Positions 7,844-57,000 of a stretch of 64,000 nt of DNA are shown piece by piece (positions within the stretch are counted from its first letter, which is position 1; each line of letters starts with the position of its first letter). The translations under genes were made by a program, and so were the position numbers. Under the pieces are notes generated by a model. That model was not told the DNA's origin. It ran no database searches and was given only the letters and a program-made list of their open reading frames with translations. The stretch is taken from the NCBI GenBank assembly GCA_010093995.1, contig ML992501.1, positions 1,731,583-1,795,582 of the forward strand, read 5' to 3'. Origin of the DNA: Elsinoe ampelina. Lineage: Eukaryota.

Positions 7844-9146
7844 CTTACCTAGGAGCTTACGTAAGAATAGAAGTAAGAGGTTATTTAAATATACTATAAT
7901 AACCTAATAGTAGGACATAGTAGAATCGATAAGACTATTAAACTTATTATATAAAACTACCTATAGAAAGAACTCTAAAACAATGTTAAAATATATATCG
8001 TAGTATACGATATATACTATAAGTCTAAGCACTTACGACATAAGCTATATAGCCTACTACAACTGTTACTACTACTAGATAGACTATAGTAATTAGTTAT
8101 AATAGACTTTATAGAACTACTACTACTATTAGAAGAGCCTCTTATAGGTGTAACGTATAATAGTATTCTAGTTCTTATAGATAGATTTACGAAGTACTAT
8201 TACTTTGTGCTATATAAGATAATAGTAACTACTAAGGATATAGCCTTCGCCTTCCTCTAGACAATTATTTTATAATATAGAGTACTACGAGATTTAATTA
8301 CTAATAGAGATAAACTGTTTATATTATAGTTCTAGTAGTTATTCGTGGATCTATTAGGAGTTAAATATAAGCTATTAATCTTCTTTTATCTATAAATAGA
8401 TAGACAAACTAAACGAGTAAATTAAGTACTAGAGTAGTACCTACGCTACTACCTAAACTATAAGTAAGACTTATAGGTAACGCTATTACTACTTATAGAA
8501 CTTGCTATTAATAATAGAAAGTTAGTAAATAGAGTTTTACTATTCTATATAAACTATAGAATACACTCGGATTTATACTATAATATACTTAGAATTAAGC
8601 TAATATCTAAGAGTATAAATATACTAGTAGCTAATATTAAGAAGTTATATAACTAGCTATACTAAGATATAGTATTTATATTACAAAGAATAGTAAGTTT
8701 TGCTAACTAGAAGAGAATTATAGAACTAATTCTATAGGAAGGAGAGAAAGTTTACCTCCTTAGTAAAAACATTAAAACGAAACAACTAAGCAAAAAACTA
8801 AACTATACTAAGTTAGGACTCTTTACTATACTTAAAAAAAGGAATAAGAATATATATAAACTAGAACTATCTAGAAGTATAAGGATTTATCTAGTATTTT
8901 ATATCTCGTTATTAGAACCTACACTACGTAACACCTAACTAGGACTAACTAAACTAGATAATAAAACCTAATAACCCTGTTATAAAATTAATAAAATACT
9001 AAAAGATAAGCTTATTCGGGGCTACTACTATTACTTAATCTACTAGAAGGAGTATTAGTATAGTAAAGACATATAGGAACCTTAAGAATATCTTATCTAG
9101 ATATTAATCTAAAACTACTAATAAAGTCTATCTCGGAAAAAGCGGA

Positions 9147-9632
9147 CTAGTTACTAGCGTCGATAAAGAGATCCTCCGGATATACCGCTATAAAACTAGA
9201 AGCCTCTATATTATTCTCTAGCTTACTAAGAAGCTTCGCTTCCTAATTTACTATATTACTTTACTACTCTATTATCTTTTCTAGCTTCTTCTCTAGCTAA
9301 TCTACTACCTTCTAGGCCTCTAGAATCTTATAAGTAAGAGACACTAGGCGCGACTAGGCACTTTAGAATTGCCGCTATAGATCTTGCTTCTTATTCTCTA
9401 GACAACGGAATTTAGCTTCTAAGAAAGTTCCTCTATAGGATAAGTTTATCCTAGTATACTAACTATACCTTATATAACCTTATTATATAATATAAAGATA
9501 GCTCTCCTTTAAGTATTTAGAGTATCGAGCTATCTCTTTAACTTTAATTCCTATTATAGTAATCTTTTTAGCTAGGTTCTTCTAGTAAATAGTAGAGGAA
9601 AGTGTTAATAGTTTCCTAATGCCTCGAGGTAT
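9147..9632 (-). pseudogene. Antisense accessory gene of Gypsy A1: a different Zn2Cys6-like finger plus coiled coil (RIP-disrupted)
   Basis: De-RIP reading MPRGIRK..SST..RKNLAKKI..G....ARCSKCLKESHLC....GY.RCGQCTR.NLSCGGTFSEAEFR.LENKKQDLQRQ...LEKKLEK (C-x2-C-x6-C-x8-C-x2-C-x6-C). Only TAA/TAG stops; start is ATA (inferred ATG). End approximate. Confidence 0.65.
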
Positions 9633-11774: not shown

Positions 11775-12055
11775 GAGCTCTCCCTTCTGCGTACGCGCCG
11801 AGTGCTCTCTCCTTCTGCGTGCGCTCTCTCCTTCTGCGTGCGCTCTCTCCTTCTGCGTGCGNNNNNNNNNNNNNNNNNNNNNNNNNNNNNNNNNNNNNNN
11901 NNNNNNNNNNNNNNNNNNNNNNNNNNNNNNNNNNNNNNNNNNNNNNNNNNNNNNNNTCTCTCCTTCTGCGTGCGCTCTCTCCTTCTGCGTGCGCTCCGAG
12001 TGCTCTCCCTTCTATATACGCCGCGAGTACTCTCCCTTCTATATGCGCGCCGAGC
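11775..12055. repeat. Minisatellite, 19-bp unit GCTCTCTCCTTCTGCGTGC with ~27-bp degenerate flanking units; spans assembly gap 11862-11956
   Basis: At least 5 near-perfect units around the N gap; outer units carry TATAT in place of TGCGT. Confidence 0.9.
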
Positions 12056-12839
12056 AACCCTAACCCTAGTAAGTACGAAGGACCGAAGTTCAAACCACAC
12101 GTAAAGAATAATGTCATTTTATAGACAAATCATAGAAGATACTTATAGAATAAAGCTTAAAATCGTAAGATAGATATACGTAGAGGCGTTGTATAGTAGG
12201 AGACATCGATCTACCTCCTAATCGCTACGCTAGAGGTAGTAAAAGATACAGTAAGGCGGTACGATGTCAAACACAAAAGTGAAATTGCGGAAAGGTGGTA
12301 ATCGGCTGCAGTATGCATCCATTTCTAGTTGCTATCGAGCATGAAGACGGCTGATAATGCTCCTGCGAGGCGGCCGATGGTGATAAATATTCTTTGAGAA
12401 CCGCGGTGCTACGGTAGGATTCAAGGCAGCAGCAGCCACTTTGCAGCCACCTTGTCTTGGCCATGTTCCTCAAGAAGGGCGATCGCTTGTGTAGGTCGCT
12501 TATTTGGGTCGTTGACTGATTGATGAAACATTCCCTACCCAAACCGGCTGAAGACGGCTTATGAAGCTGAGTTGGTTCAGTCAGTTGCCACATATACATC
12601 AGTGAATTCCTTGGCAAGGATGTATCAACATACATCACAGCAGCCATGTCATATTACATCACAGCTATGTGATACCAGCAATTCAGGAGGCCTCTCGATC
12701 AGTACCGGAGGATCCAGAAGAGGGGAAGTGCTCCATTCAGCCAACTCGGCACGCAGAAAGCGGCTTGGCAGAGAACTGCCTTCTGTATAGAAAGACAAGT
12801 CCATCCACTTCCACAGGTATCCACGGAGTCTTCCACAGT

Positions 12840-13559
12840 ATGCCTTCATATCTCATCACAGGCGCAAACCGTGGCCTGGGCCTAGAATTCGTCCGCCAGC
12901 TATCCCAGGATGCTGACAACACGATTCTGGCATGCACGCGATCTTCTTCCGCCGATCTTTCCGACGTCAAAAAGGTAGCTTCCAAATCGACTCATTTCCT
13001 CGTCTGCGACACGGGAGATATCAAATCAATCAAATCCCTCGCGACTTCGGCCCGTGACGCTCTTGCAGGCAGCAAGCTCGATTTCGTCATCAACAACGCC
13101 GGCATCAATGCCAAACCCGAGCAAACCGCATTGTCGATCTCGCCTGAGGATCTCAACGAGCATATCCGGGTGAACGTGGTAGGACCGGCGAAGACGACGG
13201 AATATCTCTTGGAAGCTGGCTTGTTGGCTGAGAATGCTCGAATCGTCAACATGACATCTGGCTTGGGAAGCATGGTTGTGTCTCTGTCGATCACCCCGAG
13301 GAAGTGTGCTACCTACTCAATCTCCAAGGCAGCTCTCAATGCCCTCACGGTGCAGCAGAGTGGCGAGGTCAGGGAGAAGCTGCACGGTGCAGTTGTCATT
13401 TGTATGGATCCAGGTTGGGTGAAGACTCGGATGGGTGGTGATGGAGCGCAGCTCGAGCCAGAGGTCAGCATCGGTGGCATGCTGAAGTGCATACATGGGT
13501 TGAGCGACGGGAGCAATGGCAAGTTCTTCACGTACACGGGTGAAGAGGTACCGTGGTAG
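12840..13559 (+). CDS. Classical short-chain dehydrogenase/reductase (C-factor/sniffer-like), 239 aa, single exon
   Basis: MPSYLITGANRGLG (TGxxxGxG), NNAG, catalytic YSISK, DPGWVKTRMGG, C-terminal GKFFTYTGEEVPW. The ATG at 12840 fits the family better than the ORF-track start at 12669. Confidence 0.93.
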   Translation: MPSYLITGANRGLGLEFVRQLSQDADNTILACTRSSSADLSDVKKVASKSTHFLVCDTGDIKSIKSLATSARDALAGSKLDFVINNAGINAKPEQTALSISPEDLNEHIRVNVVGPAKTTEYLLEAGLLAENARIVNMTSGLGSMVVSLSITPRKCATYSISKAALNALTVQQSGEVREKLHGAVVICMDPGWVKTRMGGDGAQLEPEVSIGGMLKCIHGLSDGSNGKFFTYTGEEVPW

Positions 13560-16030: not shown

Positions 16031-16476
16031 AGTACAGAGAGAGCTTGAGAATGAAGCAGAGAGGAACGATGCGAGGAAGTCCGAGTTTTTTGAGTCGAGA
16101 TTGGGGTCGCTGCCAACCGCGCCACGCCGTGGCGGGGGCTCGGCGGAATGTTAACCGAGGTATAAGCTAGAGCGCCAAGAAGGACCCTGATTCAGTTTAT
16201 CCCCTAGTAGAACTAAATACTTATCTACTACTCTACTAATTTATAATTAAATTAGATAGTTATTGTCTTAATCTATTATTATTTAGAAGTTCTATTAATT
16301 TAGTTATCTCTTAGTTTATTAAGTTAAGTATTTATATAGTTATAATCTACTTTAGTTTAGTAGATTAAGTAGTAATAAATCTTATTCTTCCTATATATAA
16401 GCTAATAGTTATAAGCCTAGTATAACTACCCCTATATAAGTATATTACTTAGTTACTTTCCTACTTAATCTATTAG

Positions 16477-19400
16477 TGTAATAAAGGTAGAATATTAGAG
16501 CTAGGAAGACAAGTGTATAGGAGTAGAACAGGTATTATACTAGTATACCCTTAATTGTCGTAAGACTAATCTCTACTCTATCTATTCTATAGGCGAGAAG
16601 TGTTTTATTCTCCTACGGAGAATAGTATCTCTAGAGTAAGCTAGCGTAGCGTACTTACTACGTTAGTTCTTATAATTATTTCTCCCCTTTAAGAGGCACG
16701 CTCTTACGCTTATAAGCCTCGATAAAACCTAGAAAACCTAGTATAGAAGAAAACTAAGAAAGAGCGTCTCGCTAGTACCTCTTAGGCGTAGTATACTCTT
16801 TACATATATAGCACGCCTATAGTAGCCTATACTATTCTTCGTATGCTAGATATAGTAATAATAGTATAATTCTTTATATATAGAATATAGCGCTTCTACG
16901 TTATTATCTTTATATATAAGGATCTACTTATTATTATATACTACTACCTATTATTCTCTAGATTAGGCTTAGCTTAGAGCTAGATATATACCTTTCTCTT
17001 CTCCTTCTCTTCTTCTTTTCTCCTTTATAATACTTCCTTCGCGTAAGTATTCTACTTAATACTAGCTCTATACTTATATAGGTCTAATACTATACTAGTA
17101 ACCTATTTTAGGTACTATATAGTATAGACTAGGCCTTACTAGCCTAAGGGCTAGTAGAGGAGGCTTAGTATATATGCTAAGCCTACGCTACTATAGATCT
17201 AGCTATTAGGCTTATCTATTTAGTTGTTTATTTACTAACCTAGTATAGCACCTACGTAGTAATTTTTTTTTTTCCTTTATTATTCCGGCCCTACGCTAGC
17301 TTACTTTCTATACACTTACGTACTTTAATAACTATAGCTCCTAAAGTTCCTAAGGAGTAAGTATTATATATAGTACTTACGCTACGCTAGCGCTAACCTT
17401 TTATAGACCTTATAAGAGCAATTTTACTAACTAGAACTAGTACTCTATACTATACTTATGCTATGCTATTGCTATTAATAAGTACCTCTAGCTCGAAGAC
17501 GGTATACTTCCTATTAAGAATCTCCTCTACTAGATTACTAAGGCTAAGGCTACCTACTATAATTGTTATAGTTATAGTAATAAACACTACTACTAGGTAT
17601 ACTTTACGCCTACGCCGTATCTACTTTATACTAACCTTAGTAGCCTACTAAGCTCGACTCTAAGGATTAAGTTACTACTAAGAAGCTCTAGGATAAATAC
17701 TTCGCTATACATACGCTAACCCGTAATAACGCTACTACTCCTAAGAAGAACATTATTCTTCTAAAGCGCCGGATTACTACCTATACTAACTATATATACG
17801 AGAAGGCTAGCGCTAAGCGTACATAGAGTAAGTCTAACACTAAAGATAAGAGTAAGGTAGTTAATAAGAGTAATAGTAATAGTATAACTTCTTTATGCTA
17901 TAATAGCGCTATTGCTACGCTCTCTGCTTCTAAGGTCGATACTAAGTAGCTAGCAAAAGTGCTACGCCTAGGTATAATTAGTAACACTAGCTTTATACTT
18001 AAGGCTTTAGCTAATTATATAAGTCTAGAAGTGTGCCCCTATAATACCTAAGCTACGCTAACTTCCTCGTAGGTAGTTACTAAGAATAAGTAAGCTACTA
18101 CTACGTAGATAATCGATAATACTATAAGGGTGCTAACTAGACGTATTAATAGTATTAAGGAGAATAATAAGGATAAGAGTAAGGTAGATAATGTAGATAG
18201 TTAAGGTAGGGGAGGCTAGAGCGCTATACCTACGCTATACCCTCTTTACTTTAGTATAATTCTATAGTTTTCGCTACGCTAGTGTTCTCCCTACGTAAGC
18301 TAATAATACTCTAAGCTAACCTAGCGCTATACCTAGGTACTCTTTACTTCGAAATTTATGCCTTTAACTTATTAATCCTAAGTGTATCTAGAGTATTTAG
18401 CTAGTGCTATACTTACGCTAAGCTACCTCGTATTTATATAGTAATTCCTTAGCATTTATAAGGTTTTTTGCTAGCTTCTATATACTTTCTTCTATAGGGT
18501 AACTCTACTACTTTACTAGGTAGTATAGCGCCTTTAGAGTACTAGTATAGCTCTTGTTAAGGATACGTTTAATAATGTATTCTTCTTACCCTTCTACCTT
18601 TAGAGGCAGTAGGCGTATACCCTTACTACGCCTATATAGCTCTAGTAATACAATATTAAAGACGTTATAGATTAGCTTTATTTTATCTAGTAAGTATAGC
18701 TTATACACCTACGTACTAATTTGTTATACAATTATAAATAAGCTAATATACTTAGCTAATAGCTTATAGCTAGGTCTAGCGCTATAAAGGTTCTTAGTAC
18801 TAAGTATAACCTCGTCGCTATCGTAGAAGACTTTTACTTATTAATCTTTATTATAGGCTAGCGCTTAGTCTTTCTATACTTTACGTAAGTGTCGAGCGAG
18901 CTCCGTACGCGTTTTAGTAATAGATTATACTTAGTTGTTAACTAACAAGTTATACGCTAGCGCGTAGCTAGGTAGCGCTAGCGCCTTAATGTTATTAGGT
19001 AGGTACATCTCTTACGTAAATAAGAACTACACTAGCGTAGCGTATAGTAATACTTAATACGTATTATTATACACGAATTGCGCCTACTTAACCTAGTATA
19101 GCTAGTCCGTCTAGTAATAGTCGACAAAGTAGCGTAGGTACTACTCTAGCGTCTAGTTTTGTCTTTTAGTTTAGCTATCTATCTACAGATAGAAACTAGT
19201 ACTAAGCTTACGTTACGCCTTCTAGCGCTAGTATAGCGCACTCTAGAATTTGCTTATAAAGATAGACTCTCTATCTAAAACTAGTATCTTTAGCGTTCCG
19301 AACAACGTTATAATATCTGTCTTAAATAGATTAGTAAAGTCCCTAGTGTTAAGCTTAGTTAACGTCGGCGTATAGATACTAAACTTAGACAAGTAATAGA

Positions 19401-22400
19401 TATACACGATAATTGCGTCTATAACGACACTAGGCCGGAGCTCTACTAGGGGTAAGCTAGTAATAAAATTAAGCGACTAGTGTTATAAGGCCTCGAGTAT
19501 AGGTAGAATTAGTAAGAGTTATAGGAGGCTATAAGGCTTATACTACGTTACCTTATACCTTTAGCAGCTGTTATAGCGCTCGATATACGCTTTTATAGCG
19601 ACGGACATACCTAGCTACTAGTACTTCCTCCTTATATTAAGGTAAGTCTTTATATAACTAAAGTAATTCCCTAAGAGGTTATTATAATTACGCTATATAA
19701 GCTCTACTCTTAAGGTAGTTTCTTCTAGGATATATACTCTATCTCTATTCCGGAGTAAGCTATTACTAGATAGGCTCTACTTAGGGGTAGTACTATTACT
19801 AGTTAAAGTTATCTCTTTTAGAAGTTTCTATTTCTTACTATAAGTAAAGGCGTCTCTTTACTATACTACGTAGATAAGGTCCTAGAGTAATATAGAAGTA
19901 GAAGAGATATACGTAGTCTTATCTACTAGTACTTATATAGCGTAGAGGCGCGTAATCTGCCGACTCTAGTCTAAAATTATAGTAAGCTTTCTACTAGAGG
20001 TGTCCCGGGGTTACGTAGGTATTATACCATCTTTATGCCCTTAGCTCTCTATTATTTCCTAGGCGAGTAGCGGTACGTCCTAGGATACTAGAGTAGGCGT
20101 ATATCGTTCTAATTCGACATTACTAGTTAGGCTTAGAGGAAGGTTTATATAAGTGCTCTCTAGGTACTACTCTTCTTACTCTAGAGGCTCTAACTCTTCT
20201 TAGTATAGCTATAGCGCTCCTAAGGTAATAGGTAGACTTATAGGCGCTATTCTAGAGGTATACTAGAATTATATAAGCGTATTATGTTAGGGAGCAGTTT
20301 AAGGCATATAAGCTATACTAGCTTTATTACTATCTTCCTAGGCCCTACTAGCCTTAGGTTTCTTATTTATAATAGATATAGGTATAACTCCTTCGCTTTG
20401 TATTTATAATACTTACTCTAAGAGAGAGACTAATATATAGTACTCTTCCTATATATCTTCTTTATACTTATAGTAGTTAGGCCTATATAATAGGCTATTA
20501 GCTAGATTAGTCTTCCTACTATAGTACTAAATAACAATATCAAACTACGCTAGTACCTCAGTATAGTAGGCCTAGCGCTATAAAAGCTTCTTAGTAGTTA
20601 GGAAATACCTAAGGTTATTATAGTTAGAGAGAACTTCGATCGGGGTAGTAGCGCTAAGTAGGTACTAGCGCTAGTACTACGCCGCTTCTATAATAGTAAG
20701 AAGCTCTTTGTCGTAGGTAGTGTAGTTTAGTTCTATACCTTATAGCTTCTAGGACTAGAACGCTATAAAGTACTAGTGTTACGTAGAGGTGTTATCTTTG
20801 TTTTACTAGAAGATTACTCCGGAGAGTATAAAATCTAAAGTGTTAGTCTTAAGCTAGAGAGGCTTACCTAATAAAAAGTAGCGTAGTATAGGCACTTACG
20901 TAAAGGTAGCTTTAAGCCTGTTAAAGGCCTACGCTATGTTATTGCTCTATAGAAATAGGCCTACTTACTTTCCTTAGACTAACTCTTACGTAAGTGTAGT
21001 TAGTAGTAGCGCTACGTAGAAGAAGCTCTTAATAAATTAATAGTAGAAATTAGTAAATTCGAGAAAGGTTTATAACTCCTTAAGGCTAGTAGAGGTAGGC
21101 TAGTTAGTAACGGCTTATACCTAGGGCTACTCTATCGTAACGCTATTACTACTAATAACGTAGCTTAGGAATACTACCTATATTACCTCGAAGATATACT
21201 TCTTTAGTTTTATATAGAGGCTATTCTTACGTAGGTAGTCTAGTATGCTCCTAATAGCCTAGTAATGCTCTTACTTATCGCTAGTATAGATTAGAATATT
21301 ATCTAGGTATATAATATAGTAGTAGTCTACTAAGCTACTTAAGCACTAATATATATAAGCCTAGAACGTAGCTAGAGCATTAGTAAGGCTAAAAGGTATA
21401 ATAGTATATTCGAAGTAGCTATAGTAATAGCGGAACGCTATCTTCTATTTATTGCTACGCTAGATATATACTCTATAGTAGGCATCTATAAGGTCTAGCT
21501 TACTAAATAAGTATATGCCCTCGATGTAATTAAGCATCTCGGCAATTAAAGGTAAGAGGTAATAGTTCTTAATAGTAATATTATTTAGCCTACAATAGTT
21601 AATATATAGGCGTAGTAAACTATTCTTCTTAGGAACGAATAGAATAGGAGACTCTATAGAGCTAGTGCTATACTAGAGTTAACCTATTACTAAGCTATTG
21701 TCTATATACTCTTAAAGTACCTAAAGCTCCTTCTTACCGAGGGGGTAGATAGGTCCCTAGAGTAGCTATTCTCTCTCTTTAATATCGATAGAGTAAGTAA
21801 AATCGTTACCTAGTAGCGCTATTACTATACTCTTATTAAAAACGTCTACGTAGTTATTAAGCTAGTATAGTAGGGTCGGGGCGCTAGGTTCGTCCTAGCA
21901 TATATATACTAGGTAGAGCTAGGCGTTAGACTAATTTAGCTCCTAGGAGAAGGAGAGTATATCTAGGATCGACACCTATATAGCGCTAGTACGATGCCTC
22001 TACGCACTAGTACTCTACTAAATCTTAGAGTCGTAGAACAATAGCTATAGTAGGCCTAATATAAGATTATAACTAGTTACATTAACGCTTTTAAACTGCT
22101 AGTGCGACGCCTACGTTGTTTCTTTACTATCCTTAATAGCAAAGGCTAACTTAGTATATCTATAGGTAGTTAATTCGTGTTTATCTAAGCCGCGTACTTA
22201 GTATACTACTAGGGGGTTAACGGCGATATAATAGCGTATAGTAAAATACTAGCTAATAAAGTTACTATTAGCGCTACTATCTATTAGAGCTACCCCTTTA
22301 ATAGGGCCTTTAGGTAGGTTAACTATAACGTCGGTACAAATTTAGCACATATTCTACGTTATACTAGAGCTACTTAGAATTAGTAAACGTAAGGACACTA

Positions 22401-23770
22401 TCCGTTTTAAAGAGTCCTTCTAGAGACAGTTCGGCGCCTAATAGTCTAGGCTCTTATAGATGTTATAAGAGTAAGTAGCGCTAGGTTAGAGAACTATAGG
22501 GGTAGCGTTAGCGCTACTCTACTAGTCCTTTTAGCTCTTATAGTCTTCGTTATAGTAAGGCCTTTTAGTAAAAGTATTAGTCTTCTCTCTAGTGTTACGC
22601 TTATACTACCTCTATATAGAGTTAAAGTAGCCTAGTAGGTTCTACTCTAAACGGGATAGATATACTAGAAGTTCTACCTTAATTAGGGGTAAGTTCCCCT
22701 AACGGAGTACTTCTAAGCGTAGCTCTAGCGTAGTATAGGCAATAAGCTATATATAGCAGGCGTCGTCCGGGAGCGGCGCTATCTTAATATAGGACTTATA
22801 ACTATCGAGGAACATATAGAAATTAGTAATTAACTATTCTCTACGCTAGTATAACGTAAAGAACTTTACTACGTAGCTATTACTATAGTTTTTAGAACTC
22901 TAGGCTTAGTCCTAAAGCTAGAACTATATTAGGCTCTACGAGAGTATAACGCTAGCGCTCTTAGTATATAAGTCCTAATTGTAGCTAAGCTAACCTTTTA
23001 AGTAGCTAGTAGCTATATAGCACTAAGTAACTTCTTTAAAGTAGATATTTAGTACTATCTTAAAGACGTTATTATACATATATATAAATTCCTTAACTCT
23101 TACTATAATAGTAAACTCTAAGGCCTCGGGGTAGCATAAGTTTAGCGTACGCTCTCTTACGATTTGTAGGTTTATTAGGCAAATATCGTCGGGTTGTACG
23201 TTGTTAAAACAAATACGTAGTACTAGCGCTACGACTAGAAAGTAACTACTAAGTATATTCTTAAGCTAAGTAATATAAGCAAGAAGCGCTTCGTATATAG
23301 TATTATTTCCTATGTCGGCTATGCTTCCTATAGGAGCTATATTAGCGCGGTATAGTCTTAGCGCTAGGCCTTCCCTAGCCTAGTAATCTTTAATAGGAGT
23401 TGTCTCTAGAGTTGTAGCTAATTTAGTAAATGTCTCGCTAATAGCTAAGCTATTAGAGAGTTATCTATGCTAGTACTACTCTAGCGGTAGTTAGTCGTTT
23501 CGCTAGCGCTAAGCACGGGGTGCTATCTTGTCTATATAGCTCTATCCGATAGAATATAAGAGAGATTAGAATTATAACGAAGGTAGGATATTAGAGCTAG
23601 AAAGACAAGTACATAGGAGTAGAATAGGTGTTATACTAGTATACTCTCGATTATTGTAAGACTAATCTCTACTCTATCTATTCTATAGGTAAGAAGTGTT
23701 TTATTCTCCTACGGAGAATAGTATCTCCGGGGTAAGCTAGCGTAGTATACTCGCTACGTTAGTCCTTACA
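16477..23770 (-). mobile_element. Full-length Ty3/Gypsy (family B), RIP-inactivated
   Basis: 198-bp LTRs at 16477-16674 and 23573-23770. TSD ATTAG. Minus-strand PPT at 16675-16690. RT IVYLDDILIY relic at ~21285-21320. Order gag-PR-RT-RH-IN. Confidence 0.95.
17334..18204 (+). pseudogene. Antisense, intron-containing accessory gene of Gypsy B (six-Cys finger, acidic tail)
   Basis: Introns 17357-17406 (GTAAGT..GCTAAC..TAG), 17597-17643 (GTATAC..ACTAAC..TAG) and 18019-18072 (ATAAGT..GCTAAC..TAG) join into one frame with only TAA/TAG stops. Inferred C-x2-C-x21-C-x9-C-x2-C-x6-C. Confidence 0.7.
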
Positions 23771-24675
23771 ATTAGTTAATTCTTTATTATTTTACTTTTT
23801 AAGTATTAGAATTTATTAAGAACTATCTTAATTATAACTATAAGATTTAAGTATTAATAAAGAAATAAATAACTATAGATACTAATACCTTAATAGCTAG
23901 AATACTTATTATTCTTACTATATTAGCTAAATAGGCTAGCTAGCTATATATTATTAAGATAAGAGCTTTAAATACTAAGATATAGAACCTTATTAATCCT
24001 TAGAAGACTATTAAGCTAAAGGAGCTTCCTAAGCCTTAGAAGCTAGAAATAGTAAATATTAACTTCTTAATACTCTTCTAGATATATAAGGAGGAATAAG
24101 TATAGTATAATAAATAATATAAAGCCTTAGCTAATTTAGCTAGCCTTATTTAGTTGTTAATTATACTATAAGTTCTTACTATTATTTAGCTAGAAGAAGA
24201 TTCTTATCTATAGGCTATTCTTTAAGCTTTAAAGAATAGATTTACTCTATCTAATATAGCTATTTAGCTTAAGGTTAAAGTACTTTAAAGAAAGTAGCTA
24301 TCTAGTTCTTCCTTATAGAATATAGACTATTAGCTTTAGTAATAGAAAGAGGTTATAGATAAGGCTAGGAATTATAATCTACTAGAAGCTTAAGGCTTAA
24401 AGCTATAAAGAGACTTCTTACTTTCTATCTCTAAAACTAAACTAGTATTTACTAATAAGTACCTTATTAATCTAGATTTACTAACTCTACTAACTATACT
24501 TAAACTAATTACTAAATTTAGATAGTTCTATAAGCTTTATAAGCTATATAATACTATAAAGACTAGTAAGGGAGCTATAGCCTTCTCTATAGCTACTAAA
24601 GATATTCTTTATAAGAAACCTAGTTCTATTAAAGAGCTTAAGTATATATATTAAAGCTAGTATAAATAAGGTAAG

Positions 24676-27600: not shown

Positions 27601-29910
27601 CTATAGATGTTAGCATAAATAAGCTAAAGAACCTTTAGTCTTCTCTATAAAGTTTTACCTCTTCTATTCCTTATCCTTGTTAAGGAACAGACCTTACATA
27701 GGATTAACAAATTATAGTTTAAATTAATAAGCTTCTTAAGGGTTATAACCTTATAAAGATCCCTAAGCTTCTTAACTCTAAGGTAAGCAAATCTCCTATG
27801 CTAGAGTTAGTACTCTATGTTAGAGTTGTTAGGTCTTAAATTAATAAGATCCTTATGTTACTTATCCTAGGTTAGATATACATACTTAGTGTATAATATA
27901 ATTACTAGCTAAGTAGTAAGGAATACTATGTCCTAATTAGCTAGATCTAGAATTAAGCCGGGCTTAGATCTAGAATGCAGCTTTTAATTAGCTAACTACT
28001 TAAAGAGGGATTAGATAATATATACCCCCCCTTAAATTCTAGCTTTAAGTAGTAGCTACTTTTGTAAATTAAGAACAAGAAAAGAATTTAAATTAAGAAT
28101 TCTAGAAACTCCTAAATCTGTATATAGCTTGTAACAGAAGACTAAATTAACACTAAGATTAGGTATATAAAGAGCCTATACCTTTATCTTATCTCCCTTC
28201 TTAGTCCTAATAACTGTAGTTCCTATTAACTATAACTAAAGGTAACCCCCCCTAACCTAGATCTATTAAGTGCGTATCTTGCTTAATAGGCCCCTAAAGA
28301 GAGTTAGCTTATCTATTATATAGTTAGATACTCTAGAGTTAAGTATCTACTAATAATGTAGAAGCTTACCTTACACCTCTAATGTAGAGCCTATAGTCTT
28401 AAGTTCCTCTTTACCTAATAGAACTTTAGGTAGTAGAGTTAAGATTAGAGAGGAAGGTTCGGACCGGCCTTTAGTAGNNNNNNNNNNNNNNNNNNNNNNN
28501 NNNNNNNNNNNNNNNNNNNNNNNNNNNNNNNNNNNNNNNNNNNNNNNNNNNNNNNNNNNNNNNNNNNNNNNNNNNNNNNNNNNNNNNNNNNNNNNNNNNN
28601 NNNNNNNNNNNNNNNNNNNNNNNNNNNNNNNNNNNNNNNNNNNNNNNNNNNNNNNNNNNNNNNNNNNNNNNNNNNNNNNNNNNNNNNNNNNNNNNNNNNN
28701 NNNNNNNNNNNNNNNNNNNNNNNNNNNNNNNNNNNNNNNNNNNNNNNNNNNNNNNNNNNNNNNNNNNNNNNNNNNNNNNNNNNNNNNNNNNNNNNNNNNN
28801 NNNNNNNNNNNNNNNNNNNNNNNNNNNNNNNNNNNNNNNNNNNNNNNNNNNNNNNNNNNNNNNNNNNNNNNNNNNNNNNNNNNNNNNNNNNNNNNNNNNN
28901 NNNNNNNCTACTTATCTATCTTGTAGTTTACAAATTAGATAACTAGCTCCCTTACACTTGCTTTAAGGTTTGTTTTGTACTTAGACTTAAGTAATCTCTA
29001 ATACTCTAATATAAGCTCTTCCTTATATAGTAACTCTTTGTTATCTTATAAGATGCACTAGACAACCTAGTACTTAGTAGTTATATTAGCCTTTTACTAG
29101 TCCTTTAACTTAATAGGTAGGACTAAAAAGGAGCTAGAGGTGTTATTAGATAATAGTGTTACTAAAGGGGTAGTCTAACTACGAATAGTCTAGAAGGCAT
29201 CCTTACTTATAAGGTATATTTCTATCTAGTAGAACTATTCTCTCTAGTTAAGTCTATTAAGCTTAACAACTAGTCTTCTTAAAGATAAGAACTAATCTTC
29301 TATAGTTAGGAATTAAGTTCTCTAAGGAGAAGAGAATTAAATAAATAAATAAAGGTTAAGTTTAGTTAATAACCTCTAGTTAATAGTTGTCTATAAGGCT
29401 AGCTAGGCCTTAGAGGAAGTTAATAAATCAAATATGTTTAGTTAATCTAGCTAATAAATAGTAGCTATAGTAGAACAATTATAGGAGTTAAACCTGTACT
29501 AAATAGAAGTGCTATTCCTACTTATTGTCCTAAGTAGTATAATCTTTTACGACTTATAGTATAGTCTACTAGGCTTACTAAAGGTATCTAGATAGTTAAC
29601 TATAAGGCAGTAGGGATATTGTAATTCTACTTCCGTTTTGTTTAAGCAGTGGGCTAACTACTATATATATAATTCTATACTTGTGCTATAAGCTCCAAGC
29701 TTATAACCTATTAAGTAGAAGGCACGTTTAGGGGTAGAGTATTATATGGAACTAATCCGTACACTAGTTAGGTAATAGACGAGTTGATTAATTAAGGAGT
29801 CTATCTACCGAAAGAAAGAACAGCTATAAATCCCTAGGACTTAGTATTATATAACCTATAGTTATATAACCTTTAGGCCTAATTATCTAGAGAGAGCTAT
29901 ATTCTTAACA
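24676..29910 (-). mobile_element. Full-length Ty1/Copia (family C), RIP-inactivated, contains gap 28478-28907
   Basis: 202-bp LTRs at 24676-24877 and 29709-29910. TSD GTAAG. PBS-like GGTTATAAGC. LWHRRFAHLG relic at ~27778-27806. RT LLVYVDDI relic at ~25912-25943. Integrase lies upstream of RT. Confidence 0.95.
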
Positions 29911-36600: not shown

Positions 36601-37708
36601 GGCAGCTCGAGTATTATTTAGTCCTTAACTAAGTCGCTTAGTCCTTAGTAGAATACTAAATGTTTAGTACTATTATTCTAGTCTAGGTGTATTATAAGTT
36701 ATTAGAACTAGAAGTAGTACTAGGCTATAGACCTACGTTGTTATAGTTGTCAAATCTTCGTTATAGTAACATATTTCTTATTAGATACGTTAAAGACTTA
36801 CTTAATCTTTGTCTAGAAGATGCTAAAGCTCTTAAAGATAGCCTTTATATCTAGGCCTAGTTATCTATCTAGGTAGCTACTTATATAAGGCTCAAACTAC
36901 CTAAAGGTAGCGCCTTTAAGGTGTATCCTAGTATAGAGGACCTTTACTACGTCGTTAGTGTACTTGTCTCTCTCTAGAGTAAAGAAGGCTTTAAGTTAAA
37001 CAAGGAAGCGCCTTAAGTAGACATAGTCCCCGTAGAAGAGTTCTACTTCTAACTTAGGCTTGCTCTATCTCTCCCCTATACTAAGAGACCTTCTATGTTC
37101 GCCCGAGGTTAAACTAGTAGTAGATATATTGTTAATAGTAAGCTTTCCTAGCTTACTAGTAATCGAAGATACTAATAGTAACTTAGAGCAAGAGTTACTT
37201 ATTAACCTTATAGCGTGCTATACTATAGCAAGGGTAGTTAAAATGTTACGAACCGTCTAAATATAGCCTACGTTAGTAGTATAAGCTAAGCTAAGAACGA
37301 GGTAGTTCTACTTCTATAGTAGTATAGTACTAAGGTAAGAGTTAGAGAAGGTATATTTTACAGATAATAAAGTACAATTAGATAGTATTATAAAGGCTAG
37401 CCTTAGCAATACTAGTGTTCGCTATCTAGACGAGGTTAACTATAGTACTTATATAAGGTAAGGACTTATTCCTATATATATGTATTCTTTACTACGTACT
37501 CTATATGCTCTACGTACTCTATAGTAGAGCTACTAGAGAAGATAGAGTACACGCCCGCTAGTAACCTATACGCTCTATAGTCTCCGGGGTAGAGCTACTA
37601 GAGAAGATAGAGAACCGAGTAAACGTTAGGCTAGGTCGCGTAATAACCTTAGTAGTTTAATTAGTCCTAACGTCTCTACGCTCTAGCTTGTTCTACTAGT
37701 TCGTAACA
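30684..37708 (-). mobile_element. Full-length Ty3/Gypsy, second copy of subfamily A2 (element D), less mutated
   Basis: 465-bp LTRs at 30684-31148 and 37244-37708. TSD CTAAG. Colinear with 823-7843. Confidence 0.96.
31223..31771 (+). pseudogene. Antisense Zn2Cys6-like/coiled-coil accessory gene, second A2 copy
   Basis: Same length and frame as 1360-1908; retains more ancestral codons (CGT TAC AAA TCG AAG GGG; CTT CGC CTA CGC GAA GAG). Confidence 0.7.
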
Positions 37709-38315
37709 CTAAGCTTAGTTTAGTAGCTTAACTAATTTATCTTAGGTCTTTATATTAGACTTATAAGCTATTAAATACTTAGTAAATTATAATAAGGAGT
37801 TCTAATACTAAACTTACTATATTAAAGCTATTTAAGAGAACTACCTTTAATATTATTATTAATAGATTTACTAGCTATAATAAGGTAAGATATATAAGCT
37901 ACTTTACTTATAGAACTACTAACTATTAACTAGTTACTACCTATACTTATAGATATAAGATTAATAAAATCTATATTAAAATAATTACTTATATTAAAAG
38001 CAATCTTAGCTTTAAAATTAGATTCCTTAGGAGTAATAATAAGAAAGCTTTTAGCTTTAAATTTACTATCTTCTTAAATAGTAAAGAAATCTATTATAAG
38101 CTATCTACTCTCTATACTTAAGCTTAGAATAGTTATAATAAAAGAATAGAAGCTATACTATTAAGAAGAGTAAGGGTAATTACTATCTTTACTAATCTAC
38201 TAAGAGAATTATACTCTAAACTATATAGATTAGTAGCCTATTTAATTAATAGAACACCTCTTAAGAAGCTAAACTAGAAGACTCTCTTTAAGCTAGTTTA
38301 TAGATATTCTCTATT

Positions 38316-41300: not shown

Positions 41301-44300
41301 TACTATTAATAGAGTTATAGAGGTAGTAGAAGGCTTAGTAGATATTAATCTTACTAAACTACTTAGCTTTACTTATGTACGTAAGTGTTTCTTTAATAAG
41401 AAGTAGTAGATAGATATCTTACTTAGTTACCTTATTAAGGCTATAGTAGTTAACGTAGAGATAGAGTCTACTACCTAACTTATAAATAAAGAGAATAGGC
41501 AAAGAGTAGCTAGTAGAGCTTAGTATAATAAAGCTCTTATCGAGGTACTTATAGATAAACTATTCTACTATATTAAGCTCGTCTAGTAAAAGGCGGCGTA
41601 GGGGTTTAGTGCATAGTAGTTTAGCTCTATTCTTAAGTGTAATTCGATTGTTAAAATCTAGCTAGTATAGAGAAAGTATATTAGACTACTCTTTAGAGAA
41701 GATATTAGCGAATTTACGTAGCTCCTCTAGAAGAACTACTATAGGGTCTAGCTCTAGCTTAGAGGCTATCTAGTAGTAATCCTTAATGTTCTTTACTAAG
41801 ATTATAAATACCTTATTCTCTTAGTATCGAGCTACTAATATAAAAGTAATAGCGCTAATAAAGGCGATAGTTAGTTCTTCTTATTTAGTGTTACTTACGT
41901 AGGTAGGTATATAGAAGAACTTATATATTAACTAAGTACTATAGGAGACCGGTTTAAACTCCCCTTAATCTAGCTTAAGGTTCGACCTAAGAGCTAGTAG
42001 TTAATATAATCTAGTTTATTCTATCTTAGTAGCCGAACTAGAACCTAGTTTACAAGTTAAACTAGAACTAAACTAGTTCTAAACTAGAGCGGCGGCCTTA
42101 CCGAGCTAGATTCCTAGATCTAAGCTAGGCTTAGATCTAGATTCTAGTCTTTTAATTAGCTATAGTAGCTCCTACTCGATAACGACTAGTAAAAACTCTT
42201 CTTTATACGTAACTTAGCTATACTTATAGTTAATAGTAGCCCTATTAGCCTTAAGCTAGCTAAGGCTAAAAATAATATTAAAACAGCTAATATCTATAAT
42301 ATAGAAGGTAGTAAGAGTGTTTAGCTTACTAGAGACAGTAGTAGTAAGAGGAACGCTATAAGTAACTTACTCTATTAGAACACTATTATAGGCTTAAAGC
42401 TAAATAGGACTAGCTAGTGCTATAGAGTAGCCGAAGCTCTTTAGCTTATCGAGGATATTATAATTAACTACGGCGCTAATAAGTACGCTAGTGTCGATAA
42501 AGGCTTAAAGTATAATAATATATAAGTAGTTATAGGAGTCGTAAATAGTAATAGGAGTTATAATAGCAGGGATATAGTAGCTAATAACGCTGTTTATTAA
42601 GTATATACCTCTAGATCTATCTCGAATTACTCTTATTCTACTAGAGAATAGAACTTATTCTCTAGCTACTCGTTTCTCTAGCTAGAGAAACTAGTAGGTT
42701 TATAGTCTATTTCGGGGTTGAACTAAGGCTAAACTAGATTTAGTTTGTAAGCTAAACTAGTGTCGACTTAGTTACTTAACTTAGCTAAGTAATTCTAGAG
42801 CTACTATATTTCTTCTATAGCGCTAATACATATAGGGTATATAGTAGCGTAAGTAGCCTTCTCTAAGGCGCTAGCTATATACTTAGTAGAGATATATCTA
42901 GGCTTGCCGCATGTGTAATAGGTAAGTACTAGAGCTAGACGGAAAGGCTATAAAGCACCTCTAGTAATAGAGTAGAAGGTAGGCGAAGCTATAGGCGTAG
43001 AGGTAGAATAAGATACGTAAGTAGGTATAGTAGTAGCATAGCTTATAGCTAGCATAGAATATAAAGCCTAAGTACGCTTAGTAATAAGGTTATTCTATTA
43101 GATATTATAGTTAGTAGCGTAGGCCTTAGTAATAAAGGTAGTAAGGTTATTAGTGTCGTAGTTAACTAGAGTATTACGTAGCTTATTAGATATCTTCTAA
43201 TAGATCTAGTATAGCTACTTCTCTTTAGTAATCTTAGTGTAAAGGGTATACTTATTAAACTTGCTAATAAAGGAGTTAAATGTACTATTATGCTAAAAGA
43301 GATTAGTAAACTAAGTATATATAGTAGCTCTATAGTTAGGATCCTCGAAGCGCTAGACTATAGAAGAGTAAGAACCTCTTTAACACTAATAACGTTATTA
43401 CTAGCTAAGTCTATAATAAGGGTATAGACTTCTCTAGAGAGGCGTAAGTATAGATAGGTAAACTAGGTATCTCTTATAGAGAAATAATCTATATTAGTAC
43501 ATATCTTATTCCTTATCTAGTACTTAAAGACCTTAAACTACTTTAGTATACCTATGCTAAAGATAGTAGAGTCTAGTATCTTTTCTAACAAGATAGAGCT
43601 ACGTATAGAAAGAGCTAGTATACTATACTCTATCTCGTTTCTTAGTTAGTTTACCTTAGCCTTAAGCTCTTAGATTTTGTCTAGGTAGTAAGTAGCTTAG
43701 GTAGTAATACTATTAGTATAGAACTAAGATATATCTAGTTTAGATTAGAGGTTACTAAGCTAGGCCTAAGTAGTATCTAACTTATAGTAATAGTAGAGAG
43801 CGTTAATATAAGTGCCTTTTACCTATATAGTCTACTTATTATAGAAGGACTTAATATAGTTAAATACGTCTCTTAGTACCTATATACTATACTCTTCCTA
43901 TAGCTTCTTAAGAAGTATAGCGTTAGAGAGGGTAAAAAGATTATAGTAGAGAGAGTAGATAGAAGTATTATTATTATTAGAGATAGGTTAAGGTAGCTTA
44001 CTTTAGTAGCGCTCTTCGTTACTATAGTTAGATCGAGCTATGCTTAGCGTAGTTAGTTATAAATAAAACAGTATAAAACGTTAATACGTAATAAAGAGAA
44101 TATTAAAATTTTTAGCTAGTAGCCTACTTCCTTTAAGAGTCGTCTATAACTTAACTTATTACCTTCTTCTTATATCTTTAAGATTTATAGTATTAACCTA
44201 TATAGTAGTAGCGAGGATCTATTATAGTGTGCGTAGGAACTATAGTTATAATAGCTTCTTCTTTAATTCTTTATAAGTAGTAGTTATTAGTAGTTACATA

Positions 44301-51981: not shown

Positions 51982-54093
51982 ATTAAAAGAAGGTTCCCGA
52001 TAGTAGAGAAAAGACAATAAGACGTCGGAGAGATACTAGGAGATATTAGTATAGAATATAAGGTAGAGAGTAGAGAGCTATACTTTAGTAAAAGAGTTTT
52101 TAGAAGAAAGAGAAGAGATATTCTAACGAGGGAGAAGCCTTATATATATATTAGAGCGTCCTATTGTCCTATTATTACGGACAATAGGAGGCTCCTATAC
52201 TAATTAAGAGAAGAAGAATACAAGAAGAAACAAGGTAGCCTACTAATTATTGTTATAGCTAGCATAATAGTAGCTAGAAGACAAAGGAATAACGTTATTA
52301 TATATGCTAGGTAAGGTAAATTTACATATAAAGTCGAGTAGAGCTACACTTTATATTCCTTACCTAATGCTAAGACCCTGTATATAGACCTCTATATGTA
52401 GTGTAATAACGCTCCGAAGGTAGTCTACTCTTTCTCTACTACTAGAGAGTTTTAACAAGGAACTAGCCTAAGGACAGGCCTATAGAGAAGAAGGCAATTG
52501 TAACAGGAACTATAAACTTACAACTAGTAGACAGATATTAGAGATATGTTATTCTAGCTACGATCCTACATAGTATATATAGTAGTAGTTCCTAACCTTC
52601 TATAGAGAGGTTAGGAATTTATTATTGTATTTATATAGTATATACTTCTCCTCTATTGCTTCTCTATCTTAGAGACATTATACCTGCCCTATCTAGATAC
52701 TCTATTACAATAACCTTAACTAAAACTAATTAGATTACTTAATCTACTAAGGCTCCTATAGAAGGTTAATAAATCTAAAAAGATATATAAAGTAGAGGGA
52801 ATAACTAAACTAAATCAAGTTTAGAATCTAGTTTAGTATCTAGTTTAGAGTCTAGTTTAATATCTAGTTTAGAATCTAGTTTAGAGTTTATCTTAGCCTC
52901 TAATATAGACTAAGACTCTAGCTAAGAATCTAGCTTAAGAGCTAAGCCTATCTTAGTTACTAGTTTATAAGCCTTATAATTCTTATTTACTAGTATAATT
53001 AGTACTAAATCTACTATTCTTACTTAGATCTAAGAATAGTACTTTAGTAGACTAGTTCTTTAATACTCTAGCCTTACCTCTATTAATAGTAATATAGCTA
53101 TCTCCTCTACTAATAGGAGAAGTTAAAGCTAAAAAGAATAAGGAGAAAGATTAAACTAAAGAGGTAGTTAAAGCCTAACCTAAGTAACTCCCTTAAAGAA
53201 TTACTACTAGGTTAGCTAATCTTCTTCCTAAGTATATCTTTACTATAAGAAGAATAAGAAAGCTAAGGAGATAAATATATATTACTACCCTTATATAAAC
53301 TAATAAGGCTTCTAGATATTACTAAGCCTTTAATACTTATCTATTAATAAAGCTAATATAGCTTAAGCTAGAATTAAGAGATAATCTTCCTTTACTACTA
53401 GCTAATATTAAAAAGCTTAAAGCTAACCCTTATAGAAAGTAATTTTAAGAAGCTATAAAGGCTAAATTACTTACTTTATACTTAAAATATATATAGACTA
53501 TTATACTAGCTACTTAAGTAATAGGTAAGTTTATCTCTTTAATATAGATATTTACTTATAAAGTTAATAATAAAGAAAAGGTTATAAAGTATAAAGTAAA
53601 AATCTATATAAGAAGTAATTTTTAATTAATAGAATTAGAGACTTATATAGTAACTCTAGTAGCTAAGATCTTTAGAATACTTATAGCTTTACTTACTTAT
53701 AAAGATATAAAGGCTATCTAGATAAATATTATTAATACTTATATTAATAGCTCTATTAATAAAACTACTTACTATACTATTTCTTTTAGATTTAAGTTAG
53801 TTATAGAGAAGCTTATAAAGGACTACTCTAGTATTACTCTATTAGATATAATTCTCTTACTTAATAAAGCCTTATATAGTTTTAAATAAGCTCTAGCTCT
53901 CTAGTATACTAAATTTACTACTACTTTAAAGAGTATTAGTTTTACTTAGGCTTCTAAAGCTTCTTACTTCTAGCTAATCTCTAAAGTAATAATCTTCTTC
54001 TTTATAAATAATATTACTATTATATATCTTAAGAAGTATAAAGAGAAGACTAATTTTATTATTATAGCTCTCTATACTAAATATAAGATAAAG

Positions 54094-57000
54094 TTAATAG
54101 ATTTAACCTTCTACTAGTATAGGTAGATCTCTTATAGTAATACTTAGCCTTTATAAGGCTAAAGTATCTTAATTAAGAGTAGTATTAATATTAGCCTTAT
54201 TAGCTCTATAATAAACTTACTATATATCTACTATATATACTAGGCTTAACTAAGCTATAGCTTCTTAGTTACTTTATCCCTTATAACTTAGATAGCTAGA
54301 AACTAGCTTAGATCTTTAAGTACCTTTATCTTATATTTAGTATAGAGAGCTATAATAATAAAAGTAGCCTTCTCCTTATACTTCTTAAGATATATAATAG
54401 TAATATTATTTATAAAGAAGAAGATTATTACTTTAAAAGTTAGCTAGAAGTAAAAAGCTTTAAAAGCCTAAGTAAAACTAATATTCTTTAAAGTAGTAGT
54501 AAATTTAGTATACTAGAGAGCTAGAGCTTATTTAAGACTATATAAGGCTTTATTAAGTAAGAGAATTATATCTAATAAAGTAATACTAGAGTAGTCCTTT
54601 ATAAGCTTCTTTATAACTAACTTAAATCTAGAAGAGATAGTATAGTAAATAGTCTTATTAATAAAGCTATTAATATAAGTATTAATAATATCTATCTAAA
54701 TAGCTTTTATATCTTTATAAGTAATAAAGCTATAAGTATTCTAAAGATCTTAGCTACTAGAGTTACTATATAAGTCTCTAATTCTATTAATTAAAAATTA
54801 CCCCTTATATAGATTCTTACTTTATACTTTATAACCTCTCCTTTATTATTAACTTTATAAGTAAATATCTATATTAAAGAGATAAACTTACCTATTACTT
54901 AAGTAGCTAGTATAATAGTCTATATATATTTTAAGTATAAAGTAAGTAATTTAGCCTTTATAGCTTCTTAAAATTACTTTCTATAAGGGTTAGCTTTAAG
55001 CTTTTTAATATTAGCTAGTAGTAGAAGAAGATTATTTCTTAATTCTAGCTTAGGCTATATTAGCTTTATTAATAGATAAGTATTAAAGGCTTAGTAATAT
55101 CTAAGAGCCTTATTAGTTTATATAAGGGTAATAATATATATCTACTTCCTTAGCTTTCTTATTCTTTTTATAGTAAAGATATACTTAGAAAGAAGATTAG
55201 CTAACCTAGTAGTAATTCTTTAAGGAAGTTACTTAGGTTAAGCTTTAACTATCTCTTTAGTTTAACTTTTCTCCTTATTTCTCTTAGCTTTAACTTCTTC
55301 TATTAGTAGAGGAGATAGCTATATTACTATTAATAGAGGTAAGGCTAGAGTATTAAAGAACTAGTCTACTAAGGTACTATTTCTAGATCTAAGTAAGAAT
55401 AGTAGATTTAGTACTAATTATACTAGTAAATAAGAATTATAAGGCTTATAAACTAGTAACTAAGATAGGCTTAGCTCTTAAGCTAGATTCTTAGCTAGAG
55501 TCTTAGTCTATATTAGAGGCTAAGATAGACTCTAAACTAGATTCTAAACTAGATATTAAACTAGACTCTAAACTAGATACTAAACTAGATTCTAAACTAG
55601 ATTTAGTTTAGTTATTCCCTCTACTTTATATACCTCTTTAGATTTATTAACCTTCTATAGAAGCCTTAGTAGATTAAGTAATCTAATTAGTTTTAGTTAA
55701 GGTTATTCCTCTAGTTTATAGAACTAAGTTTTATTAAATCTAATATCTCTTATTCTAATAACCTTCTTAGAGGATAGTATAAAGATCCTAAAGATATTAG
55801 TTAAGTTATAGCTAACTAGATAGCTAATATAAGCCCTTAGTATAAGCTTATTACTACTTATAATAAGCTTATCTAAAGTATAAGCTTTATATCTAAGTAG
55901 CCTAAGATAAGTAACTAATAGAGAGTATCTATAAACTAGCTTAAAGAAAGTCTTCTAGTCTAGCTTCTTAAGAGGTATTTTATTAATTAGATAAGCTACT
56001 AATCTATATAGTTTAAAGTATAATTCTCTTAGTAGATTAGTAAAGATAGTAATTACCCTTACTCTCCTTAATAGTATAGCTCTTATTCTTTTATTATAAC
56101 TATTCTAAGCTTAAGTATAGGAAGTAGATAGCTTATAATAGATTTCTTTACTATCTAGAAAGATAGTAAATTTAAGGCTAAAAGCTCTCTTATTATTACT
56201 TCTAAGAAATCTAATTTTAAAGCTAAAATTACTTTTAATATAAATAATTATCTTAATATAGATTTTATTAATCTTATATCTATAAGTATAAGTAGTAACT
56301 AGTTAATAGTTAGTAGTTCTATAAGTAAAGTAGCTTATATATCTTACCTTATTATAGCTAGTAAATCTATTAATAATAATATTAAAGGTAATTCTCTTAA
56401 ATAGCTTTAATATAGTAAGTTTAGTATTAAAGCTCCTTAATATAATTTACTAAGTATTTAATAGCTTATAAGTCTAATATAGAGACCTAAGATAAATTAG
56501 TTAAGCTAAACTAGGCTTAGTTAGAGTTAGTTTACTACTAACTATAGTAGTTAGAAAGTAATTAATAAACTTTAAGCTTAGATAGTCTATAACTTTATAC
56601 TAAGATTAATTAGTCCTTATAGTAACTATAGTAAATACTAATAGTAGATAATTATTATTATTCTTTAATACTATAGTAGTAATATTAGAAACTTTAGAGT
56701 TATTCTTAAAGATATATTAGTTATACTTTAGTATAACTAAGAAAAGTACTTTTCCTTTATAGCTAATCTTTATAGTTTAAGTATTTTAGTAGACTCTACT
56801 ATTAATAAACCTCCTAAGGCTAACTAGATTAGTTATAATTAATAGTATATAAGCTACCTTTATAAGATAGATAGTTATAGGCTTTCCTTTATAAAGAGCT
56901 ATAATATTAATAGTTCTCTAACTCTTAATACTAAGTAAAGTATTACTATAGAATAGCTTCTTATAAAGTTTTATAATTCTAGTAACTTTATATCTATCCT

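Follow-up and report, generated by a model that had tools for sequence, protein, structure and literature searches.

A probable antisense gene remnant behind pol in a fungal chromovirus wrecked by repeat-induced point mutation

The locus

The DNA analysed here, called the window below, is a stretch of 64,000 nucleotides from Elsinoe ampelina (GenBank assembly GCA_010093995.1, contig ML992501.1, positions 1,731,583 to 1,795,582 of the forward strand), and all positions are counted from its first letter. At 16477-23770 lies a Ty3/gypsy chromovirus, the family B element, which is wrecked by repeat-induced point mutation (RIP) and carries its pol on the minus strand. A slot of 1.7 kb, from 16675 to about 18420, separates pol from the 3' long terminal repeat (LTR), and its plus strand holds a former coding frame at 17644-18204. 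We read it, with a rough probability of 0.55, as a RIP-killed antisense accessory gene of the aORF-3R class, most likely made up of two exons and one short intron. An earlier note, drawn from the letters of this stretch alone, had proposed an antisense gene with three introns at 17334-18204; what stands of that gene is a once-coding frame at 17644-18204, on the strand opposite pol and in the slot just described. The features of the locus are as follows.

17644..18204, plus: body of the antisense open reading frame (ORF), frame +1, 186 codons, terminal TAA at 18202-18204
17397..17596, plus: candidate upstream exon, stop-free in frame +0, with 5 stops in 63 codons in frame +2
16697..17396, plus: upstream region, 5' untranslated region or promoter if any; it contains the possible promoter (16700-17330) and exon 1 (17262-17356) of the earlier note, the latter with a T-run
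16675..16696, minus: putative polypurine tract, reading AAAGGGGAGAAATAAT on the minus strand, adjoining the 3' LTR and labelled from its position
16477..16674, minus: 3' LTR relative to pol, 198 nt; its TG...CA ends are RIP-mutated in this left-hand copy
18418..23560, minus: gag-pol, RIP-wrecked; single frame starting at 23775, with the end of pol near 18420
23573..23770, minus: 5' LTR relative to pol, direct repeat of the 3' LTR
16472..16476 and 23771-23775: left and right copies of the target-site duplication (TSD) ATTAG, 5 bp; an empty-site paralogue joins the flanks

The element has the anatomy of a chromovirus: an LTR pair with a TSD, reverse transcriptase, RNase H and integrase in order, and a C-terminal chromodomain. 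The two LTRs (198 nt each, TG...CA ends) are 88% identical. Pfam matches to RVT_1, RT_RNaseH, RT_RNaseH_2, Integrase_H2C2 and SH3_Tf2-1 lie in one minus frame, and the pol C-terminus matches Chromo at 18427-18579 (minus strand) with E=0.0031 and 17.8 bits, under the Pfam cut-off of 25.1; the best pol relatives retrieved (P0002-P0009) carry PF00385. Because the pol domains, with the chromodomain last, run on the minus strand, the left LTR is the 3' LTR. An uninterrupted paralogue of the insertion site is present at 57759-58361, 94-96% identical and in opposite orientation, and since this empty site (58361-57759) joins both flanks, it fixes the element ends and the 5-bp TSD.

RIP turns CpA into TpA, and the family B element carries its signature, with observed/expected ratios of 0.18 for CA, 0.19 for TG and 1.89 for TA (1.43, 1.12 and 0.49, respectively, in a host gene used for comparison). 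A word-based search with the RIP-mutated integrase part returned a single, distant match from a plant. Mutating the pol of relatives in silico by RIP, meant to raise the similarity, lowered the scores and was abandoned.

A former coding frame on the plus strand

RIP creates TA dinucleotides without a 3-base register, so that the phase of TA keeps the old codon phase. In 17644-18204 the TA dinucleotides are distributed 74:16:22 over the three phases (chi-square 54.5), which ranks 1st among the 1746 AT-rich 561-nt sub-windows, above all pol segments, in a distribution with a median of 4.7 and a 99th percentile of 30.6. Frame +1 is interrupted by 8 internal stops in its 186 codons, each TAA or TAG as RIP would make, and 4 of the 8 are clustered in 18049-18108; pol's own frame, for comparison, has 2-13 stops per 100 codons, depending on the block. 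The product of frame +1 is basic, rich in K, N, S and T, and contains internal in-frame repeats. At the DNA level these are direct repeats pairing 17829-17865 with 18156-18192 (spacing 327 nt), 17724-17746 with 18087-18109 (363 nt) and 17855-17873 with 18071-18089 (216 nt); the spacings are all multiples of 3, which suggests a duplicated basic protein module. Tandem Repeats Finder reported just 2-3 copies of 6-12-nt units in the antisense ORF, and since no tandem array was found, the periodicity is not due to tandem repeats.

Periodicity and open frames might instead be by-products of RIP in a compositionally odd, non-coding 3' region which never held a gene. Such a reading would suit the low-complexity translation, the failure of the searches described below to return a homologue or a domain, and the RIP-dead gene at 9201-9608, which is without TA-phase bias (25:22:25) and makes periodicity of this kind look atypical of genes. 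It would have to explain, however, how a process with no 3-base register of its own, acting on a sequence with no tandem array, came to produce a periodicity that ranks 1st of 1746 and exceeds every pol segment, internal repeats that keep the frame, and a single frame picked out by a validated codon model. We hold the absence of a gene to be improbable, and the antisense gene remnant is probably real.

Strand and frame were judged with codon models. One was trained on the host genes of the window after RIP mutation in silico (host-RIP model), the other on the RIP-mutated pol segments of the window, with leave-one-out tests (pol-trained model). The former was given more weight because the latter misjudged a control, namely the remnant of an antisense gene at 9201-9608 that homology had identified independently; for this control the host-RIP model got both strand and frame right. 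Tested on genuine pol chunks mutated by RIP, the host-RIP model put the true frame in first place in 27 of 31 cases and the sense frame over its mirror frame in 30 of 31. Over 17644-18204 it scores frame +1 at -701.7, the next frame at -722.8 and the mirror frame -0 at -725.9, so that +1 is the best of six by 21 log units. The pol-trained model placed sense over mirror in 47/47 chunks of 300 nt and 31/31 chunks of 555 nt, and over 17644-18204 its score for +1 exceeds that for -0 by 24 log units. We assign the gene body to frame +1 of the plus strand, in a tail-to-tail arrangement with pol.

Coding by the minus strand in frame -0, as a C-terminal extension of pol or as a third sense ORF, is very improbable. 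In 17683-18282 that frame does have as few stops as pol, 6-7 per 100 codons, and a purine/pyrimidine periodic Markov model scores it near +1 (11.6 for the mirror frame -0, 12.8 for +1). This last model is unaffected by RIP and finds phase, not strand, the RNY pattern being self-complementary. Both codon models, in contrast, set +1 about 24 log units over -0, with controls on the question of strand of 31/31 and 30/31; in 17383-17682 no minus frame is open, each having 11-17 stops per 100 codons; and the pol matches in 76 related loci (see below) mostly end just after the chromodomain. The excess of A over T moves to the plus strand in 17644-18204 (A 36% vs T 29%), pol's sense strand being likewise A-rich.

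Splice-like segments and the number of introns

The earlier note had pointed to three segments of 47-54 nt opposite pol, each with a donor, a CTAAC and a TAG, and all of them are present on the plus strand.

17357-17406, plus: segment 1 (intron 1 of the earlier note), 50 nt; GTAAGT, CTAAC at 17393-17397, TAG
17597-17643, plus: segment 2 (candidate intron 2), 47 nt; GTATAC, TACTAAC at 17629-17635, TAGTAG
18023-18076, plus: segment 3 (intron 3 of the earlier note), 54 nt; poor donor GTCTAG
18031-18072/76 and 18090-18140/52, plus: alternatives to segment 3

Fungal spliceosomal introns have a GT donor, a CTRAY branch site and a YAG acceptor within about 45-70 nt, and by sequence 17357-17406 and 17597-17643 fit this consensus. 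With a strict donor (GTRNGY), the 871-nt region contains 3 distinct intron candidates, against a mean of 0.34 in 1000 local dinucleotide shuffles, 17 of which reach 3; for the AT-rich DNA of the window as a whole, counted on both strands, the background is 0.13 strict candidates per 871 nt. The excess of splice-like signals over chance is thus real but modest, given the post-hoc choice of the region. CTAAC itself occurs 8 times on the plus strand of the region and 0 times on the minus strand (95 and 131 times, respectively, in the whole window). Part of this excess stems from local codon composition and not from branch points, since 5 of the 8 are codon pairs (CTA-ACN or NCT-AAC) of the proposed exons.

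The second segment coincides with a switch of frame. The change of TA phase falls between 17641 and 17646, no more than 3 nt from the acceptor at 17643, and 17462-17641 is phase-biased in another frame (3:22:15, chi-square 13.9). A perfect TACTAAC stands 9 nt ahead of the AG of the acceptor TAG (17641-17643), and three in-frame stops at 17632-17643 lie immediately upstream of the gene body. No ATG or ATA start is found between 17644 and 17706, the first possible start being ATA at 17707, and 8 of the 11 TAs over 17646-17706 are already in coding phase. We infer that the phase switch represents a splice acceptor, and judge one intron ending at 17643 to be, on balance, the better supposition.

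Upstream of this acceptor, frame +0 runs for 84 codons (17397-17648) without a stop and includes an ATG at 17463; no other frame in the RIP-mutated DNA of the window stays open as long. For the upstream exon the codon models give +2 an advantage of 2-11 units, and the TA phase is tied. A donor GTATAC at 17597 (47-nt intron) would suit a passage from +2 to +1, and a donor GTAATA at 17577 (67-nt intron) one from +0 to +1, so that the choice of donor is uncertain as long as the upstream frame is.

The gene may also have had a single exon and no intron, with a start at a former ATG (now the ATA at 17707) or at one lost further upstream, and the same end at 18204. Comparable antisense ORFs of two relatives (L006 and L061, below) are single open frames, the remnant at 9201-9608 aligns in one frame, the local CTA- and TA-rich composition favours splice-like triplets, and introns 1 and 3 are not needed. 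We nevertheless find a single exon unlikely: the coding-phase bias (8 of 11 TAs, binomial about 0.01) begins at 17646, 60 nt before the first start that such a gene could use, and the stretch 17462-17641 is itself biased in another phase and includes the longest stop-free frame.

The full model of the earlier note has four exons, separated by introns at 17357-17406, 17597-17643 and about 18023-18076. In its favour GT, CTAAC and TAG are correctly spaced in all three segments, the region has 3 strict candidates against 0.34 in the shuffles, and 4 of the 8 frame +1 stops are clustered at 18049-18108. Its first exon (17262-17356), however, carries a T-run and no coding signal in the codon models, frame -0 scoring best there; further upstream, in 16700-17260, no frame is prominent either (-2 and +1 are best, within 4 units). 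The removal of intron 1 had been called necessary to restore the frame, and this does not hold, as +0 is stop-free for 84 codons downstream and +2 is open through the segment. Frame +0 is open on both sides of segment 1, with 3 stops inside it, and avoids in-phase TA on both sides, contrary to the frame shift that a 50-nt intron would bring; beyond intron 1, +2 meets a stop after 8 codons, the first of 5 in 63.

For intron 3, all workable versions are multiples of 3 and change no frame. The 54-nt version depends on the donor GTCTAG, the 42-nt version is very short for a fungal intron, and the 51/63-nt version overlaps 18087-18109, the in-frame repeat of the exon stretch 17724-17746; its acceptor G at 18140 is T in a second organism (among the variant places listed, 40 of 339). 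Taking about 5% of Gln plus Trp codons for a rough estimate of the stops that RIP would make, the 8 stops of frame +1 match, and no third intron is therefore required. Introns 1 and 3 are best explained as chance look-alikes in a CTA- and TA-rich sequence. With these two unneeded and exon 1 devoid of coding signal, intron 2 alone is supported, and the three-intron model as written must be called decidedly unlikely.

Copies of the family

Contigs from DNA sequencing runs were compared with 16600-18500 at >=80% identity, i.e., at least 80%. Matches came from 1183 contigs of the source organism and 160 of the second one and covered 30 of 30 bins, from which it follows that the segment is part of a high-copy family common to the two organisms. 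The differing places in the source organism are transitions of RIP type in 192 of 197 cases, and indels are rare, single-contig events. Among the 1183 + 160 contigs none joins across any candidate intron, i.e., no processed copy was seen. Two runs presumed to be of RNA gave 0 contigs on the stretch, which speaks neither for nor against an antisense transcript. The earlier view that the gene is maintained by the element cannot be upheld for the RIP-dead copy in the window. The segment does belong to the family and is not a private insertion.

Relatives and the identity of the protein

For comparison, 76 metagenomic chromovirus loci were retrieved, the query being an alignment built from the nearest intact pol proteins. 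Their match to the 1055-residue query pol mostly reaches residues 1041-1054, ending just past the chromodomain. Two of the loci, L006 and L061, have intact antisense ORFs behind pol, each in one open frame, which demonstrates that the slot behind pol is used in relatives and makes a gene of this class plausible. The ORF L006:2836-3330 (minus strand) lies directly behind pol and encodes C-x2-C-x6-C-x8-C-x2-C-x6-C followed by a coiled coil. It belongs to a family with 29 relatives (P0036-P0064; 41-99% identity) that share six invariant or near-invariant cysteines with Gal4-like spacing and a DGNFS..DFD.L motif and are encoded antisense behind pol in metagenomic chromoviruses. Zn_clus matches the L006-type protein with E=0.083, and the family has no precomputed Pfam domain. 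The other ORF, L061:6308-6844 (minus strand), encodes 179 residues rich in cysteine in a 2-kb gap between pol and 3' LTR of an element with 100% identical LTRs; it is without a relative among the other 75 loci and without a Pfam family. In seven LTR-bounded relatives the antisense frames behind pol gave no Pfam match at E up to 0.1 except noise (Sema4F_C, E 0.032), and 16 long minus-strand ORFs behind pol gave none at E up to 0.01 except a Copia reverse transcriptase in L007.

A dead member of the six-cysteine family is present in the window itself. The minus-strand segment 9201-9608 matches the family profile A2 with 19.9 bits (E=6.7e-6), aligning to profile positions 7-133 in a single frame with all six cysteines read as Tyr. 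It is preceded by a plus-strand pol segment at 7892-8458, and thus marks a second chromovirus of the window with another antisense gene in the same slot.

The same identity was tried for the family B gene and rejected. Profile A2 reached at best -4.5 bits (E 210) on unspliced frames and 0.0 bits on 669 frame translations from each of which one GT-AG segment had been removed, and Zn_clus (PF00172) matched no plus frame at E up to 10. The six-cysteine spacing C-x2-C-x6-C-x5-12-C-x2-C-x6-8-C, with Cys or Tyr allowed, does not occur in the gene. Frame +2 does contain two half motifs, YLCYAIAINKY at 17453 and YNCYSYSNKHY at 17558, separated by 24 residues and two intervening stops; the RIP-mutated DNA, 104,328 codons in all, has 19 pairs of this sort, and no in-frame intron closes the gap. 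As judged by profile and spacing, the family B gene appears to be no detectable member of the six-cysteine family.

Interpretation

Several results weigh against a spliced antisense gene at this place. HMMER searches of the plus-strand frames, exhaustive over 1.84 billion representatives, gave 0 matches; Pfam searches of the plus frames at E up to 10 gave noise only (DUF4871, E 0.16; DUF2614, E 0.22); tblastn against the 76 loci returned only matches of biased composition in the wrong place or on the wrong strand (L062, L001); and tblastn of the plus-strand frames found no match in the rest of the window. The purine/pyrimidine model fails to separate +1 from -0, which is pol's own frame, and the pol-trained model, wrong on the control remnant, puts +2 (-699.4) slightly over +1 (-704.8) in 17644-18204. 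The splice-like signals were spotted post hoc, with a p of only about 0.02 in local shuffles; the upstream exon is ambiguous between +0 by stop count and +2 by codon models; the donor GTATAC departs from the consensus, and its alternative GTAATA lacks a G at position +5. Finally, this copy is RIP-dead and nothing in it shows expression or present function.

Set beside the position, the phase bias, the strand and the place of the frame switch, these points leave the RIP-killed antisense gene with two exons and one short intron as the reading we prefer. In that gene, a short upstream exon within 17397-17596 would be followed by a short intron running to the TAG at 17641-17643 behind the TACTAAC branch site; the use of either donor, like the expression of the gene in its intact state, is presumed. 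An intron antisense to the element would not be in splicing orientation on the genomic RNA and would thus survive reverse transcription, and intron-marked retrotransposition reporters follow the same logic. The product could be a regulator of the element, the usual guess for the aORF-3R class.

Members of that class are antisense ORFs in the interval from pol to the 3' LTR; in the portion of PMC7264820 consulted they include those of Grande1, RIRE2, Retand and PvRetro13, with brtn of Boty as the fungal example. As far as this portion describes them, they resemble the family B gene in position, in orientation toward pol and the 3' LTR, in a presumed regulatory role and, it seems, in their recurrence across family copies. 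The family B gene differs in its fungal instead of plant host, in the RIP-dead state of the copy, in having no sequence similarity to anything and in splicing that is deduced from a frame switch plus signals. The gene brtn is an antisense gene of the Boty-like (BcGypsy1) Ty3/gypsy element of Botrytis cinerea and Sclerotinia in the excerpts of PMC8365987, PMC7264820 and PMC4227169. Going by those excerpts, Boty resembles family B in being a Gypsy element of fungi that has a chromodomain and bears an additional antisense gene behind pol. The L006-type genes share slot and strand with the family B gene and have a dead member in the same window, yet they are one open frame with a six-cysteine profile, whereas the family B gene has neither a profile match nor a workable spacing. 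The original report on brtn is said to be that of Zhao et al. 2011 in Virology 417:248. Among animal retroviruses, the spliced HBZ gene of human T-cell leukaemia virus type 1 (HTLV-1) and the antisense protein of human immunodeficiency virus (HIV) are likewise encoded opposite gag-pol near the 3' LTR; they have no sequence relation to the family B gene, and the analogy is one of layout only. A literature search returned no publication with a title on Zn2Cys6 antisense genes of fungal retrotransposons.

So far, antisense accessory genes have been described in a few LTR retrotransposons of plants and, among fungi, in Boty. The family B element adds a fungal antisense gene which differs from the neighbouring six-cysteine type and hints that the slot takes different genes. 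Tentatively, and against the odds as we see them, fungal chromoviruses might more than once have taken unrelated genes into the antisense slot between chromodomain and 3' LTR. If so, accessory genes would land in this slot time and again, with one element carrying a six-cysteine, Gal4-like gene and family B a different one, spliced and coding for a basic protein with internal repeats and no known relatives; its antisense orientation to the genomic RNA would explain why the intron was kept, and element-encoded regulators would be the most likely products. Given a layout described before, a dead copy and a protein that belongs to no identified family, the gain is modest and incremental. On the methodical side, RIP-dead genes can be assigned to strand and frame by TA-phase periodicity combined with a codon model trained on genes subjected to RIP in silico.

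Surroundings of the element

Host blocks of the window are GC-normal (51-55% GC) and alternate with AT-rich blocks. Host genes in the GC-normal flanks are a short-chain dehydrogenase at 12606-13556 (plus strand) and the coatomer alpha subunit at 60831-64000 (minus strand), the latter in several ORF pieces which presumably are exons. Runs of N occupy 11862-11956 (95 bases) and 28478-28907 (430 bases); the second falls inside an LTR element, where the long ORFs of the program-made list are artefacts of the N run. Further AT-rich sub-windows with strong TA-phase periodicity (chi-square 28-40) are 37591-38151, 56161-56721, 54271-54831, 42811-43371 and 53641-54201, and these five may be additional RIP-dead coding stretches.

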